IMG/VR virus record: IMGVR_UViG_2695420487_000018
Reading direction: 5' to 3' (one strand)
Length of the DNA stretch: 15,479 nucleotides
DNA from: a virus
Taxonomy: Duplodnaviria; Heunggongvirae; Uroviricota; Caudoviricetes
Every line of letters begins with the position of its first letter. Position 1 is the first letter of the stretch. The notes under the pieces were generated by a model. The model ran no database searches and had not been told where the DNA came from. It saw only the letters and a program-made list of their open reading frames with translations. Below, piece by piece: positions 1-12,642 of the stretch. The position numbers and the translations under genes are program-made.

Positions 1-165
1 ATGGCAAAGCCGATCATCACGCTCAATGGCCTAAAAATCGTCATTATGTTGGGAATGCTGGTCATTATTCTCTGCGGTATCCGTTTTGCCGCCGAGATCA
101 TCGTGCCGTTTATTCTCGCATTATTTATTGCTGTTATATATAACTTATTTCACATAACACGTTGA
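1..165 (+). pseudogene. tqsA: Truncated 5' part of a host inner-membrane transporter gene (TqsA/YdgG-like); about 45 host-like codons, then 9 codons of AT-rich island DNA to a TGA
   Basis: ATG at 1; translation [45 protein letters not shown]... is a hydrophobic N-terminus I recognise from memory as E. coli-type TqsA (not searched). Composition switches abruptly to AT-rich at about 135-140. Confidence 0.45.
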
Positions 166-462
166 TTTAATTAAATAATTTTCACCACAAAAAGTGCCAA
201 AAATCGCAAAATGACTACACCAGTGACTACACCGTTCGGTGCACTGTATGAAACAACGTGGAACAAATAGACACAAGAAATATACAGGCGGATCATCTTT
301 CCAGGGGGAAGCGCACCAATTCATGAGGGGCGTTAATGTCGATATGGGGATCCCCACCTACCGGAATTTTTTTCCGGTTAAACGTTAATCAGGCTGGTGG
401 GCTTTACCTGTTCGGTAGGAGTTATGATTATCGTAATACCTTTCCCCCAATGGGGTAAAAGC

Positions 463-609
463 ATCAACCGTAACGAAAGTCGTTATGGTTGCCACTGATA
501 CCCCAAATTTGGGTATCACGAGTAAGACCCAAAATCTGGGTGTTACTCTTACTACCCAAACTACGGGTAGTTTCCGTAGTTTCATGGTCGAGTTGCAGAT
601 CTGCAACTC
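463..609. repeat. Array of dyad-symmetric sites: AACCGTAACG-N5-CGTTATGGTT (463-487), three ACCC-N7-GGGT sites centred at 507, 534 and 561 (27-bp spacing), and a perfect 20-bp palindrome GAGTTGCAGATCTGCAACTC (590-609)
   Basis: Read directly from the sequence; arms GATACCC/GGGTATC and CTACCC/GGGTAG are perfect reverse complements. Confidence 0.6.
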
Positions 610-902
610 CCCCATTAACCACAGGCGAATTTCCGCCTTCGGTCATTCCTTAATCATCTGCGTAATCATAATGATTATTCAGCAAGCGCAATTTTGCGCT
701 TTGCTTAAAGTTCAGCGAGTTACCGCGCCGACTTCCTCAAATTGAGGTTTCCGAAAATATCAGCGGGTTAGCGATTAAGCTGATCATTAATTAAACTGCG
801 AAAATTTCGTAGTTTGTGACTGTCTTTCAGGCAGCTTGTTAACAGTCCTCAGAAGCGAGGGATGTAGCCACCCATTTTTGGTCCGTCGGGAATATCAACC
901 AG

Positions 903-1184
903 TTACCGCCGCAACCGCTCCGGCTTCTTCCAGTGGTACGTTATTTTCTCCTTCTCCCGATACATCTCCACGCGGCGACGGTAGGCCAGCAACTCAAGAA
1001 CTCTGGTTCGTATGTTGCGCATATCCACGCCATTAAGTTCTATACCATCACGGCGCATCACCTCAGCAACAACACGCGCATAGTTTTCGGCTGTCACGCT
1101 GTCCGGCTGCGTGGCCTGTTCGTCAGCCTGCTGGCTGATTCCAGAGACGCGGCGGATTAATCGCAGTATTTCGGCTTCTGTCAT
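903..1184 (-). CDS. Hypothetical protein (93 aa), last gene of the packaging operon
   Basis: ORF starts 14 nt after the TerL stop, with GAGG about 9 nt upstream of the ATG; no family recognised. Confidence 0.5.
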   Translation of the reverse strand: MTEAEILRLIRRVSGISQQADEQATQPDSVTAENYARVVAEVMRRDGIELNGVDMRNIRTRVLELLAYRRRVEMYREKEKITYHWKKPERLRR

Positions 1185-3199: not shown

Positions 3200-3322
3200 G
3201 CTTATTTTTTCGCCAGATTATTTTTCAAAAAATTCCCGTGCATAAAAATTTGAGGAGGCGTTCGGTGCCCGGCGGGGTCGGGTTTGTCCTGAAAACGCCC
3301 CCCACCCCGTCATACAGCCTCA

Positions 3323-8111: not shown

Positions 8112-8522
8112 TCAGAACGGAATATCATCACCGTAAGGGTCATCGCCTTCCGCTGGTGGCTGATTACCCTGTGTGCCTGTGGTCTTGCGTCTGTTCCCGC
8201 CAGGACGTGCCGCACGGGCACTGATTACGCTGTCTGCAATAACCTGATACCCCCGCCGCGTTTCCCCGTTCTGTCCGGTCCACTGGCTTACCTGCATCGT
8301 GCCGGATACGCTGGCAACATCGCCTTTTTGATGTTTAGCCAGGAAATCGGCCTGTTTGCCAAATGCGATAACCGATAACCATAACGTCGCCTGTCCGTCA
8401 TGTGCCTGGCTGCATGGCAGCGATACCGCCATACGCGCCAGCGTCATCGGTGTTCCCTTGCTGGTCTGTTTTACCTGCGGGTCGTCCACCAGCCGCCCGT
8501 AAGCCGCTATCTGTGCTGTCAT
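8112..8522 (-). CDS. ssb: Single-stranded DNA-binding protein
   Basis: 136-aa ORF; OB-fold-like N-terminal region, Gly/Pro/Gln-rich linker, acidic C-terminal tail ending DDIPF (SSB signature); ATGA overlap with the upstream gene. Confidence 0.85.
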   Translation of the reverse strand: MTAQIAAYGRLVDDPQVKQTSKGTPMTLARMAVSLPCSQAHDGQATLWLSVIAFGKQADFLAKHQKGDVASVSGTMQVSQWTGQNGETRRGYQVIADSVISARAARPGGNRRKTTGTQGNQPPAEGDDPYGDDIPF

Positions 8523-8770: not shown

Positions 8771-8803
8771 TTGCCACCTCAATTTATATATATATAGAAA
8801 CAT

Positions 8804-9120
8804 GTGCGGGTTATGCGGGTTATTGGGTTATCTTAGCGTGCTAACCATTTTTTATCCTTTTATATCAGCATGTTGCAAAACGCCCTGTTTATTATTTGCT
8901 CACCACATAACCCGCAAAACGCTCAAAATAACCCGCAAACGGGGTTTTTTCTGCGGGTTACGCATGACTGTCCGGTGTTACTTCAGTTATTCGCCTGCGG
9001 GTTATAATCGTGCTTTTGCGGGTTATAAATGCCCTTTTGCGGGTTACGTGCGGGTTATTGATTTCCTTTATATTCATGCGCTTAATACACTTATACACAG
9101 GATAACCCGCATAACCCGCA
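8804..9120. repeat. Iteron-type replication origin: about 12 copies of GCGGGTTA(T/C) (8 forward, 4 reverse) plus AT-rich tracts
   Basis: Forward copies at 8806, 8815, 8953, 8997, 9018, 9039, 9050 (and degenerate 8824); reverse ATAACCCGC at 8907, 8928, 9102, 9111; AT-rich 8780-8800 and 8840-8900; directly downstream of the rep gene. Confidence 0.8.
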
Positions 9121-9142
9121 ATTTTTTTCCTCACACAGGGGA

Positions 9143-11275
9143 TTAATCTTCATCATCAGGCTGGAACATCAGCACGTAAAAAACATGCTGCTTACCCCCA
9201 ATCTTGCCCAGCGCCTTTTTTTTGTATCGGCGATCGCTTCCCTTCTCCAGCATTCCGGCAGCATCCAGGGCACGCGCAAAATGCGCCGGATTAAATCCCT
9301 TCGCTATCTCACTCTCAAACACGTGCGGGAACGTGTAATAGCGCATCTCGTCATCTTCGTTGCGAATGCTCCCTTTTCTGTATCCGGCAAGCTCTTTAAT
9401 CGGTAAATCACGCTCATCTGTATTGGGGTACGGAAGGTAGCGGCTAAACCCAAACGACGACAAAAACGCCTCAGCCTGTTCAACCATCTGTTTAAATTCC
9501 CTGTTACCTGTGCCGAACTCCTTCACCCAGGCATTAAAGTTATGCTGTATCGCGTCGCGGCATTCCTGCACGACCCAGCCAGTTACATGACCGGAAAGCA
9601 CAAGCGCGGCCTCCAGTATGGCGAAACGTTCACCCACGCGGTGGACCTGCTCGCCGTAACTCTCCGGTATCAGGTTGCGCCACCGTTCGCGGCATTCCCT
9701 TACCGTGTCCTTTGCCTCCTGCTGGTGGCCTGCCAGCCATTTAACCCACTCACGACCCGCCGCCCCGTGATTTGCTGTCCAGGCATCCTTTAACGCGTCA
9801 GCATGTTCCTTACCGTTGCTGTATTCGTGAAATTTCGTGGCTTTTTCCATCGGAACGTTAAGCAGTCGGACAAGCTGCCCCGCCTTAACTTTTATCCCCT
9901 CACTTTTGAGGAATGTCTCAACGTCCATTTCTCCGGTGCTGATTGCCACCGTTCGCCAGTGTTTGATCTCCCTGTTGCCGCCATCCTTCGCCCCCTGCAA
10001 TTTCCCTGAACCGTTAAACAGCGTATAAGCAGACGTTGACACTTCCCGCGCATTTCCGGCCTGGCCTATCTCATCCAGTGGTAAAAGCCCGTCATTATGG
10101 GCCTCGGCCTCATTGGCAATACCTAACGCCGTGCCGTACCAGGTCAGCCGCTGCGCGTCCGGCTCTCCCCATAAACTTGATGCGATGTTCTGCGTGGTGG
10201 TCTTACCTGCCGATGACTGTTCGAAAAGATGCACCCCGAAGCCGTCAGCACCCACAAGGCCAATTAAAGGCGCTGCCAGTGACGTTGCCACACCCAGTAT
10301 CATTGAGGCATTACCGCCAGCCAGCCGCGCCACGCTGTCGCGCCAGCCATCCGCCGTGCCCGCCACGGAATAACCGTTAATCGCGGCGCTTTTTCCGGTA
10401 AACAGGATCGGTTTTTCAGATTCACCAATGATCGAACCGTCCGGCATGATGTACGCGCCAAAATGCCAGCCCGTTGTTGTGCTTAACTGCCATTCCTCAT
10501 GGCTTCCGCTTAACTGCATCCAGTCCGCCAGGATTGCCCTGTATTTGCCGTTGGTTGTCACGTTCAGCCCGTGATCTTTAAGTAACCGCCAGCCGTCACG
10601 GTCGCCGATACCACCACACGGGATCGCCATTGTGATGACTTTATGGTTTGCGGTTTTTTTCCAGCGCATCACGCGGTAATGCTCTTTACCGATCGTCCCC
10701 GTTCCCAGTAGTTCAAGCGGAGAACATAACCACGTCTCAGGCCGGATAATTTCGCCTGACTGCTTATCCACTTTGGGCGTTACCCAGAAAACACCATCGG
10801 CGCGACTTTCAACGCGTGGCTTTAATTCGTCATCGCTATGGCTTCCGGTATCTTTTTTCTTTACCGGAAACTCAATAACCAGACCATCAGAAAGATTCTG
10901 CCGCTCACGGGCCAGATATTCGCGCCAGTTCTCCACCTTCTGACCGTGCATTCCTTCGGGGTAAAAATTTGCGTCCTGAATATCTGCCGCCGCCAGCTTC
11001 TGACCAATCTTTTTGGTCTCCACCAAATCCAGTTCTCCGGCCTGGTACAGCCTTACGCGTTTTTTTCCATCCGGAACAATTTTCAGCGCATCAAGTTCGG
11101 CAAGCTGATTTGGCCCAAGCCACACAGGCGGAACATTATCGCCGGATGCGGGGCCATCCTGCTCCTGCCATTGTTTCGCGTGCGACCAGGCATCACTACC
11201 CGCGAAAATAATTACCTCTGTGTCTTTGTGTTTTATTCCGCGTGGCTGTTTTTTTACGTTCGGTGCCAGTTTCAT
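9143..11275 (-). CDS. Replication initiator, primase/helicase-type (P-loop NTPase; DUF927/D5-like family suspected)
   Basis: 710-aa ORF; Walker A-like FEQSSAGKTT; position immediately upstream of the iterons matches pri-rep genes of satellites. Confidence 0.8.
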   Translation of the reverse strand: MKLAPNVKKQPRGIKHKDTEVIIFAGSDAWSHAKQWQEQDGPASGDNVPPVWLGPNQLAELDALKIVPDGKKRVRLYQAGELDLVETKKIGQKLAAADIQDANFYPEGMHGQKVENWREYLARERQNLSDGLVIEFPVKKKDTGSHSDDELKPRVESRADGVFWVTPKVDKQSGEIIRPETWLCSPLELLGTGTIGKEHYRVMRWKKTANHKVITMAIPCGGIGDRDGWRLLKDHGLNVTTNGKYRAILADWMQLSGSHEEWQLSTTTGWHFGAYIMPDGSIIGESEKPILFTGKSAAINGYSVAGTADGWRDSVARLAGGNASMILGVATSLAAPLIGLVGADGFGVHLFEQSSAGKTTTQNIASSLWGEPDAQRLTWYGTALGIANEAEAHNDGLLPLDEIGQAGNAREVSTSAYTLFNGSGKLQGAKDGGNREIKHWRTVAISTGEMDVETFLKSEGIKVKAGQLVRLLNVPMEKATKFHEYSNGKEHADALKDAWTANHGAAGREWVKWLAGHQQEAKDTVRECRERWRNLIPESYGEQVHRVGERFAILEAALVLSGHVTGWVVQECRDAIQHNFNAWVKEFGTGNREFKQMVEQAEAFLSSFGFSRYLPYPNTDERDLPIKELAGYRKGSIRNEDDEMRYYTFPHVFESEIAKGFNPAHFARALDAAGMLEKGSDRRYKKKALGKIGGKQHVFYVLMFQPDDED

Positions 11276-12185: not shown

Positions 12186-12642
12186 GGCACACCCCCTGAC
12201 GAATACGGGCGACAAAAATCAGATGTGCGTGCGGCAGCTGGGCGCGGGCTTCGCGTTCAGTGGCTGCGGTAACGGTGTAAATATCAATGCTGCTGTGGTG
12301 GCACTGCATAAAGCGCCAGACAAAGTAAGGGCGTGCGGATACAGCCATGTGAAAGGCTCCCAGATGAATTTTAAGGAGTCTCGCTACTACGCTGCTAAAC
12401 ATGGTGGCGAGACGTAACAGGGTTAGCAGACTGGTCATCTGGAAACCAGCGAGCACAAAGGCTCCCCCGTTACGCCCCGCCATAATGCGGGTATGGGTAG
12501 GTTTACGGACACAAAAAAACCGCTTATCGGATGTGGGCGGCTGTCCGCCAGATGTATTCAGGCTGCTAAACCCGGTCGCCATGTGGGCGACGGGGGAAGC
12601 ATACAGCCCCGTGATAATTTTTTGCAAGCGGTTTTTACGCAT
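12178..12642 (-). CDS. Hypothetical protein; C-terminal about 55 aa paralogous to the 12635..12907 product
   Basis: Track ORF 12178..12684; ATG at 12642. C-terminal motifs FVWRF, TEREAR, ARIRQG are shared with the upstream gene, with third-position differences (GTC/GTG, CGC/CGT). Confidence 0.45.
   Translation of the reverse strand: MRKNRLQKIITGLYASPVAHMATGFSSLNTSGGQPPTSDKRFFCVRKPTHTRIMAGRNGGAFVLAGFQMTSLLTLLRLATMFSSVVARLLKIHLGAFHMAVSARPYFVWRFMQCHHSSIDIYTVTAATEREARAQLPHAHLIFVARIRQGVCRA

Follow-up and report, generated by a model that had tools for sequence, protein, structure and literature searches.

The three regularly spaced dyads near the left end of the window, by which we mean the whole 15,479-nt stretch of DNA analysed here, lie within a conserved non-coding module of about 120 bp (positions 492-614, CCACYGATACCC ... 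GCAACTC plus 1-5 nt), which holds the whole array. Its conservation and distribution indicate that this module is a real, discrete, selectively maintained, and widespread satellite-specific element. Among the readings that the first-pass annotation had offered for the array, namely packaging recognition, a centromere-like site, an excisive-recombination architecture, or a structured RNA, the structured RNA remains the best supported. We tentatively propose, as one possibility rather than as the probable answer, that the module is an operon-end RNA element, i.e. a putatively transcribed 3′ tail of the late mRNA in which four hairpins would fix or protect the mRNA end.

The island and its dyad array

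The window contains an E. coli island inserted in tqsA. It is a capsid-forming PICI (cf-PICI) resembling EcCIEDL933, the prototype of this family (bioRxiv 10.1101/2022.09.08.507074), and its left end is 99.7% identical to the left end in the O157:H7 strain PV15-279. All island genes are located on the - strand and encode an integrase, an AlpA-type regulator, a replicase, an SSB, an HK97-type capsid, a protease, a portal, and connectors, in addition to HNH, a P27-type TerS, TerL, and a 93-aa ORF. The latter (orf93, assigned to phrog_1561 with E = 1e-56; 903-1184, - strand) encodes a PICI-specific small protein and is the last gene of the late/packaging operon. The origin is unmistakable as an iteron field at 8800-9125, where at least 11 exact copies of the GCGGGTTA iteron, facing both ways, surround AT-rich DNA and adjoin the DUF927/HTH_56 replicase gene. 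For the cos of the window, the better candidate is a GC-rich and then AT-rich stretch just upstream of terS, at 3200-3322. The att core TGCTGTTAT is found at 129-137 and two copies of the Int arm-type repeat GACTACACC at 213-232, both more than 250 bp from the module. A C4 RNA at 12400-12487 is the sole match to Rfam 15 at the gathering threshold in the window.

No gene had been predicted in the array region, and the RefSeq annotation likewise contains none. Three dyads of the form ACCC-N7-GGGT, with centres at 507, 534, and 561 and thus an exact 27-bp phasing, had been noticed here; a pattern match with ACCCNNNNNNNGGGT bears them out at 500-514, 527-541, and 554-568. Five matches to this pattern occur in the whole window against 0.20 expected, a number reached in none of 200 shuffles. 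All three dyads have the same half-sites at an 11-bp half-site spacing. Their arms extend to GATACCC-N7-GGGTATC in hairpin 1 (497-517), to GAGTAAGACCC-N7-GGGTGTTACTC with one G.G mismatch in hairpin 2 (520-548), and to ACTACCC-N7-GGGTAGT in hairpin 3 (551-571), the last of which overlaps an alternative 9-bp hairpin pairing 558-566 with 574-582. A 9-bp direct repeat, GTAGTTTC(C) GTAGTTTC, occupies 567-583 and is followed by hairpin 4 (584-615). The latter consists of a 20-bp palindrome at 590-609 (GAGTTGCAGATCTGCAACTC), which is perfect and has the central AGATCT as first described, and of an outer helix of ATGG (584-587) with CCAT (612-615).

Aligned in register, the three 27-mers show 19, 15, and 14 identities of 27. 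The sum of 48 compares with a window-wide mean of 21.3 (sd 4.3) and is equalled only at starts around 482-503. The array is a degenerate tandem triplication of a dyad-containing 27-bp unit; a 27-bp repeat was not reported by TRF. The 10-bp inverted repeat that had been placed at 463-487 needs correction, as it is really an imperfect hairpin (466-490) of AACCGTAACG (466-475) with CGTTATGGTT (481-490), which are complementary at 9 of 10 positions. This hairpin lies outside the module and is part of an att-proximal block (441-493) that is also found in tqsA-inserted islands without the array or the module.

Distribution, flanks, and divergence of the module

In BLAST searches of complete E. coli genomes, the window segment 492-614 was found to be conserved on its own at 92-94% identity across unrelated flanks, with sharp edges at 492/493 and 609-614. 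Of 5,426 complete E. coli genomes, 706 (about 13%) carry the module, at one to six places per genome (median 1). Loci from IMG/VR, metagenomes, and genomes together provided 186 full-length copies with 48 unique variants, which fall into only two clades, the main clade (at least 93% identity) and the L237 clade (about 76-82%). Pattern scans of IMG/VR and metagenomes returned the same two clades and no further ones, and an nhmmer search for the module near TerL relatives in 80 other species found no copy. Deposited phage genomes had no similarity to window positions 150-900, G4-type priming signals included, and the only three plasmid records with the module are all PICI-like.

All module contexts inspected turned out to be PICI-type satellites, whether cf-PICI, Rpp-type, TerS-type, or helper-embedded, and among the related loci searched the module is found only in E. 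coli PICI satellites. Its carriers comprise cf-PICIs at several att sites, Rpp/DUF1441-type PICIs, including a 10.8-kb circular record resembling an excised island, PICIs with a Nu1-like TerS and capsid and decoration genes, and satellites embedded within prophage late genes. A MITE or mobile repeat was also considered and rejected, since the module has no terminal inverted repeats and is found only inside PICIs.

The module is flanked by four left and seven right sequence classes in 12 combinations, which indicates that recombination has repeatedly cut at its edges. Breakpoints recur at these same edges and not internally, except in L119, whose second copy is truncated. Chi lies directly next to the module in 81 of 183 copies, and the region 490-900 is a mosaic in which short hairpin modules meet at recurring junction motifs. 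In some islands, duplicated module copies flank a foreign half-origin with GCGGGTTA iterons; in one of these, L193, the iterons between the copies do not match the island's own replicase.

In 79 of 84 IMG/VR loci, the module has a homologue of orf93 at a distance of 49-530 bp, with side and orientation unchanged, and in about half of the loci the module starts only 49-52 nt past the orf93 stop codon. Four of the five exceptions are truncated contigs, and the real ones are L291 and L002 (DUF3892 gene instead). On the far side of the module, only 200-600 bp remain to the island end, followed by genes of the host or prophage flank. In the cf-PICI literature, this part of the island is called a variable region that follows the packaging genes (bioRxiv 10.1101/2025.02.11.637232). 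The module is situated just before the att-proximal end of the integrated island and just before attP and int in the excised circle. Islands that lack the module and have TerS/TerL/HNH 98-99% identical to those of the window carry a different cassette in its slot. The L003-type replacement cassette resembles a small RNA gene with a + strand terminator and contains four TGTCAC repeats. Klebsiella and Pluralibacter relatives have a canonical rho-independent terminator in the slot after the orf93-like gene.

The orf93 product has no Pfam or NCBIfam family, and its PHROG carries a function-less annotation. Its AlphaFold model is of moderate confidence when built from an alignment (pLDDT 73) and poor if the alignment is omitted, and Foldseek searches of PDB and BFVD gave no match better than E = 0.2. 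The conserved C-terminal part of about 60 residues is predicted to form two long helices and a basic tail, and its counterpart is a 62-aa protein in Klebsiella and Enterobacter islands. orf93 is virtually absent from deposited phage genomes. No other island protein was found to co-occur or correlate with the module.

Conservation across related islands, which the first-pass annotation had named as a check of its proposal, was indeed found, and the region is more conserved than the neighbouring gene. With the divergence of the module and of the orf93 DNA both measured against the window copy, the module is 0-2% divergent where orf93 differs by 1-12%, about 6% divergent where orf93 differs by about 19%, and about 18% divergent where orf93 differs by about 32%. 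At the nucleotide level, the module hence diverges about threefold more slowly than orf93, and the two co-diverge. This slower rate, together with the co-divergence, indicates purifying selection and long linkage to orf93; a neutral hitch-hiker, or recent spread alone, would be hard to reconcile with it.

Folding and sequence variation

As a single strand, the segment 485-620 is predicted to fold far more stably than shuffled sequences in either direction, with z = -7.8 for the + strand and -7.0 for the - strand (-58 and -61 kcal/mol, respectively), and strong folding of both strands is also seen in relatives (z from -7 to -8.6 overall). The stem cells are 93% paired in 34 variants, compared to 30-46% with slid partners. 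In hairpin 1, the first three spacer/loop bases are hypervariable while the arms are kept, and one pair is fully compensated from A-T to C-G (L118, L456), with uncompensated intermediates also in existence. The eight inner pairs of the palindrome are 100% paired across variants, and the outer helix of hairpin 4 (H4) is kept by five different flank sequences. Only two pairs changed on both sides and covariation is not significant, a test that is underpowered because there are only two sequence clades.

These changes give mixed signals about which strand would be transcribed, as one-sided changes favour the + strand in some stems and the - strand in others. In the outer helix of H4, column 96 and its flank partner, read on the - strand, pass from G-C via G.U (36 of 183 copies) to A-U. 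Since the + strand would have an A.C mismatch at the intermediate stage, this intermediate is a legal pair only on the - strand, which is the operon sense. Wobble-type changes in other stems, such as T33.G55 and the G.T pairs of the L237 clade, fit the + strand.

Sequence conservation extends beyond the stems. The most invariant stretch of the module is TTACTACCCAAACTAC, and the stems show no more invariance than loops 2 and 3 and the linkers. Hairpin 2 has a perfect ACCC only in the O157-type variant and CCCC in most copies, and one unit of the GTAGTTTC direct repeat is missing in L147-type variants and in the L237 clade. The L237 clade has dyads of the form ACCA..AGGT, CCCC..GTGT, and ACCC..CTGT; all three ACCC-N7-GGGT motifs are therefore broken, which implies that this motif is not the conserved determinant. 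Hairpins 2 and 3 are decayed in this clade, and hairpin 1 and the palindrome are retained, the latter in a longer form of about 30 bp with AAATTT instead of AGATCT at its centre. This change of the centre is symmetric and falls at would-be RNA tetraloop positions. Together with the invariant loops and linkers, it keeps a sequence-specific partner, either a protein or an RNA, in play.

A relaxed Rfam search of 150-900 (E <= 10) returned chance-level matches only (E > 2), and no tRNA or tmRNA was found. A scan for rho-independent terminators produced one marginal + strand match, at dyad 2, and a count not above that of shuffles. On the operon-sense strand, none of the four hairpins is followed by the T run of a canonical terminator, and a census of terminators failed to distinguish module-bearing islands from those without the module. 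The conserved block contains no promoter-like sequence, and its upstream flanks are unrelated between classes. A ToxI-like arrangement was likewise not found, as on neither strand does an ORF follow the repeats before the att end or the orf93 antisense.

Possible roles of the module

In the operon-end reading that we tentatively favour, RNA polymerase on the late operon (- strand) would pass orf93 and transcribe the module as a 3′ untranslated tail, which would fold into four consecutive hairpins, H4 with its 8-bp stem and outer helix and then the three with 27-nt spacing. By analogy with REP/BIME and other 3′ stabilisers, the folded tail might define the 3′ end of the late mRNA or protect it against 3′-exonucleases, and the module may also insulate attP/int or the host flank from the late operon. 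Of 183 copies, 116 belong to the commonest flank class, where a GC-rich hairpin whose tail is rich in T lies beyond the module in the operon direction, so that the module would sit inside the 3′ UTR. The strong folding, the paired stems, the outer helix of H4 kept by different flanks, and the canonical terminator that Klebsiella and Pluralibacter relatives have in this slot also favour the reading. Several observations speak against such an RNA tail. A simple exonuclease barrier leaves the invariance of loops 2 and 3 and of the linkers unexplained, and the symmetric change from AGATCT to AAATTT hints at symmetry at the DNA level. The four hairpins lack a U-tract, the terminator census did not discriminate, covariation is not significant, the GC hairpin in the window's own flank class is on the opposite side of the module and in the opposite orientation, and the strand signals are mixed. 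Furthermore, many functional-looking cf-PICIs do without the module.

By comparison with known systems, the module appears most like extragenic 3′ hairpin clusters, yet it is not a REP/BIME. Like REP/BIME and the 'positive retroregulator' of Bacillus thuringiensis cry, it would be a stable cluster of hairpins without U-tracts after the last gene of an operon, and as in REP/BIME-type clusters its palindromes stand in a row with a fixed orientation to the upstream gene. Such stabilisers are thought to block 3′-exonucleases and can also bind proteins. The position of the module 49-530 nt past the last stop codon fits the 3′-UTR placement of REP/BIME elements. In contrast, REPs are about 35-40 bp long, have a GC-rich consensus, and occur in hundreds of chromosomal copies, whereas the module is about 120 bp long, unrelated in sequence, limited to 1-6 copies per genome, and confined to PICIs, with loops conserved as well as stems. 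The module also recalls lambda sib, the element of retroregulation in which an RNA structure across attP controls int mRNA, in being a structured non-coding site near attP whose linkage to int differs between the integrated and excised states. However, sib is an RNase III site that follows int, whereas the module follows the late operon and precedes int in the circle; the two have no sequence similarity.

The main rival to the RNA tail, which we regard as rather unlikely, is a double-stranded DNA site, where the dyads and the 20-30-bp palindrome would be cooperatively bound by a dimeric protein to form a roadblock or architectural complex at the island end. Candidates for the binder are the phrog_1561 product and a host or helper protein such as a nucleoid protein, gyrase, or a repressor. 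Identical half-sites at 11-bp spacing, the exact 27-bp phasing, a primary sequence that is very well kept even within the spacers of dyads 2 and 3, and the symmetrically changed palindrome centre would all be expected of such a site; the compensated change in dyad 1 preserves DNA symmetry too, and orf93, to which the module is tightly linked and with which it co-diverges, encodes a small, basic, helical, PICI-specific protein. The lambdoid operators OR1-3 and plasmid centromeres (sopC, parS/parC) offer a likeness in their three dyads at a spacing of about 2.5 turns beside a small gene, as is usual where dimers bind cooperatively, but unlike these, the module has no flanking promoters, repressor gene, or partition ATPase, and its dyads are lost in the divergent clade. 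No ACCC-N7-GGGT survives there and no common new half-site has taken its place, and the middle site is already imperfect in most copies. In addition, neither the dyad nor the palindrome motif recurs in the rest of the island, such as at a promoter, the orf93 product could be assigned to no DNA-binding fold or family, and the module occurs without orf93 in L002 and L291, with no other island protein co-occurring. We consider it improbable that the module gives rise to a trans-acting small RNA, released from the late-operon 3′ UTR or made from its own + strand promoter and acting on helper or host transcripts. Its discrete gene-like size and fixed ends, the single-stranded loops 2 and 3 and the TTTCATGG linker, which are as invariant as the stems, and the resemblance of the L003-type replacement cassette to a small RNA gene would suit this idea, but it fits poorly with the absence of an Rfam family even at E <= 10, of promoter-like sequence in the conserved block given unrelated upstream flanks, and of a terminal hairpin with a U-tract on either strand. 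Similarly improbable is a functionless remnant of the 27-bp repeat that hitch-hikes on the 3′ end of orf93, its role being at most that of a homology patch for recombination between islands, often near Chi. The mosaic of 490-900 with its recurring junctions, the many flank combinations, the frequent Chi neighbours, the duplicated copies around a foreign half-origin, and the optional presence of the module among otherwise near-identical cf-PICIs are compatible with a patch of this kind. Neutral DNA, however, should diverge faster than a coding neighbour, whereas the module co-diverges with orf93 about threefold more slowly, its stems stay paired, and its breakpoints, L119 excepted, fall at the edges and not inside.

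The remaining proposals concern sites for the island's own packaging, integration, partition, or replication machinery. A cos/cosB-like packaging site or an att/excision architecture might be suspected because the module shares the non-coding end region with the att arm and follows the terminase genes, but both are very unlikely, as its distribution is independent of TerS/TerL/HNH and of integrase type. The packaging recognition first suggested fails on cf-PICIs that have TerS/TerL/HNH 98-99% identical and no module (L003, L088, L091, L096, and others), and the module occurs with three unrelated packaging modules, including the Rpp/DUF1441 type and the Nu1-like TerS type. Published PICI cos sites are defined by a lambda-like cosQ/cosN (PMC6092414, PMC6739421). 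L236, a PICI of the Rpp type, has a lambda-like cosN (GGGCGGCGAGCT) at 8469, which is 1.8 kb away from its module; the window contains no lambda cosN-like 12-mer with up to two mismatches, and its module is downstream of terL and not upstream of terS as expected of a cosN. The excisive-recombination architecture is contradicted by at least four integrase types among the carriers and by islands in which integrase and att site are the same but the module is missing. Module-bearing islands are inserted in tqsA, on the thiM, phoQ, and clpA sides, and in prophage late genes, and their AlpA-like proteins are 40-100% identical. A centromere finds no partner either, as neither the RefSeq annotation nor Pfam scans of unassigned ORFs revealed a ParA/ParM/ParB-like gene.

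Replication is an equally remote prospect. Phage P4 has a distant crr built from two repeats of about 120 bp, and a second cis-acting replication region of this kind, or a part of the origin, could be envisaged from the P4-alpha or DUF927 type of the island replicases, from the half-origin with GCGGGTTA iterons between the copies in two-copy islands, and from the four TGTCAC repeats of the L003-type cassette. As in P4 crr and the iteron origins of SaPIs and PICIs, the module is a non-coding unit of about 120 bp far from the replicase gene, but unlike them, it contains no GCGGGTTA or TGTTCACC iterons within 492-614 and does not co-vary with replicase type. The origin of the window lies at 8800-9125, the identical module accompanies the DUF927/HTH_56 replicase in the window and a P4-alpha-like primase with TGTTCACC iterons in L001, and the iterons between the copies in L193 mismatch that island's own replicase. 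The O157 relative with the same left end as the window has a P4-alpha-like primase and TGTTCACC iterons instead. Judged from these co-occurrence patterns, terminase, replicase, and integrase of the island do not have their recognition site in the module.

PICIs and cf-PICIs belong to the most intensively studied mobile elements; their origins, cos and att sites, and regulators have already been mapped, and the module is absent from the PICI and cf-PICI literature searched, where a sequence-string search also found no description of it. Being common to satellites that differ in integrase, replicase, and packaging, it marks a function of the satellite life style, and its sharp edges and neighbouring Chi sites make it a useful marker for module exchange among satellites. 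More speculatively, phrog_1561 and the module might work together as a dedicated unit of protein and nucleic acid, be it an RNP on the late-transcript tail or a DNA nucleoprotein complex, that is common to all E. coli PICI lineages irrespective of how they package and is needed for efficient transfer, although we regard this as distinctly doubtful. If true, such a unit could time or boost late expression or mark satellite DNA or RNA for the packaging machinery, and it would represent a satellite-specific cis/trans unit without a counterpart in the deposited phage genomes searched.

Island ends, probable packaging region and immunity RNA

The att core TGCTGTTAT (window 129-137) lies inside tqsA and is followed by two tandem copies of the Int arm-type repeat GACTACACC (213-232), a repeat that recurs beside int at the opposite island end, as observed in the O157 relative L001. 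Between a 60-aa ORF and terS, a GC-rich segment (GGGGTGGGGGGCG ... CCGACCCCGCCGGGCACCG) gives way to an AT-rich stretch (3200-3322). This interval is likely the cos region of the capsid-forming PICI (cf-PICI), for which we found no published mapping in the literature. On the minus strand, positions 12400-12487 encode a C4 antisense RNA (Rfam RF01695, 72.7 bits, E = 7e-13), which is a P1/P7/P4-type immunity RNA within a cf-PICI; an Icd-like ORF lies downstream of it.

A circular record among the compared satellite loci, L236 (NZ_CP148328.1, 10,790 bp), was deposited as a small non-mobilisable plasmid. Its genes (int, alpA, icd-like, DUF4222, primase, ClpP-capsid fusion, DUF1441, and orf93) make up the set of a complete Rpp-type PICI, a satellite with another packaging strategy, and the record is most likely a satellite in its excised, circular state.

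Surroundings of the conserved non-coding module

The interval between the PICI-specific gene orf93 and the conserved non-coding module (492-614) is assembled as a mosaic from short hairpin modules (CCTCAAATTGAGG, AAGCGCAA..TTGCGCTT, and GGCGAATTTCCGCC; window 615-910), pieces of which are found in rearranged order in other islands. Between these hairpins, the motif TCARCNRGTTAS recurs at 712, 760, and 895 and takes in the orf93 stop-codon region; 0.04 occurrences would be expected, although the motif was derived post hoc.

Chi sites (GCTGGTGG) average approximately one per 4.5 kb in E. coli, and their density in the window is several-fold higher, with 12 sites in 15.5 kb, for example at 393-400 (five on the plus and seven on the minus strand in total). 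Among 183 copies of the module in other islands, 81 have a Chi site on the gene-sense strand directly at their right edge, where it forms part of the outer helix of hairpin 4, the 20-bp palindrome. One Chi site in the window lies ~100 bp left of the module.

In cf-PICIs that lack the module, window 494-717 is replaced by a different cassette (L003 6146-6380). It contains the palindromes GGTCATTATGACC and ATGACGTTGGCCACGTCAT, the repeat TGTCAC in four copies, and a hairpin resembling a terminator, AACGGTTAAACCGTCTTTTT, encoded on the strand opposite to that of the late operon. The cassette may encode a small RNA, or it may serve as a terminator of read-in transcription.

Replication origin and its variability

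The replication origin of the island is a field at window 8800-9125, directly downstream of the replicase gene (DUF927 + HTH_56, 9143-11275), in which AT-rich tracts are flanked by GCGGGTTA (TGCGGGTTAT) iterons, with at least 11 exact copies that occur in both orientations. The replication module has been swapped between islands: in a near-identical O157 island, a P4-alpha-like primase and iterons of P4 type I, TGTTCACC, take the place of the replicase and iterons of the window.

Some cf-PICIs (L263 (943-1496), L117, L193, and L194) carry two module copies ~435 bp apart, separated by a half-origin composed of an AT-rich tract and 3+3 GCGGGTTA iterons. Even L193 has this GCGGGTTA half-origin, although the replicase that it encodes is of the alpha type and goes with TGTTCACC iterons. 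The inter-copy half-origin may be left over from recombination, or it may act as a decoy for a replicase.
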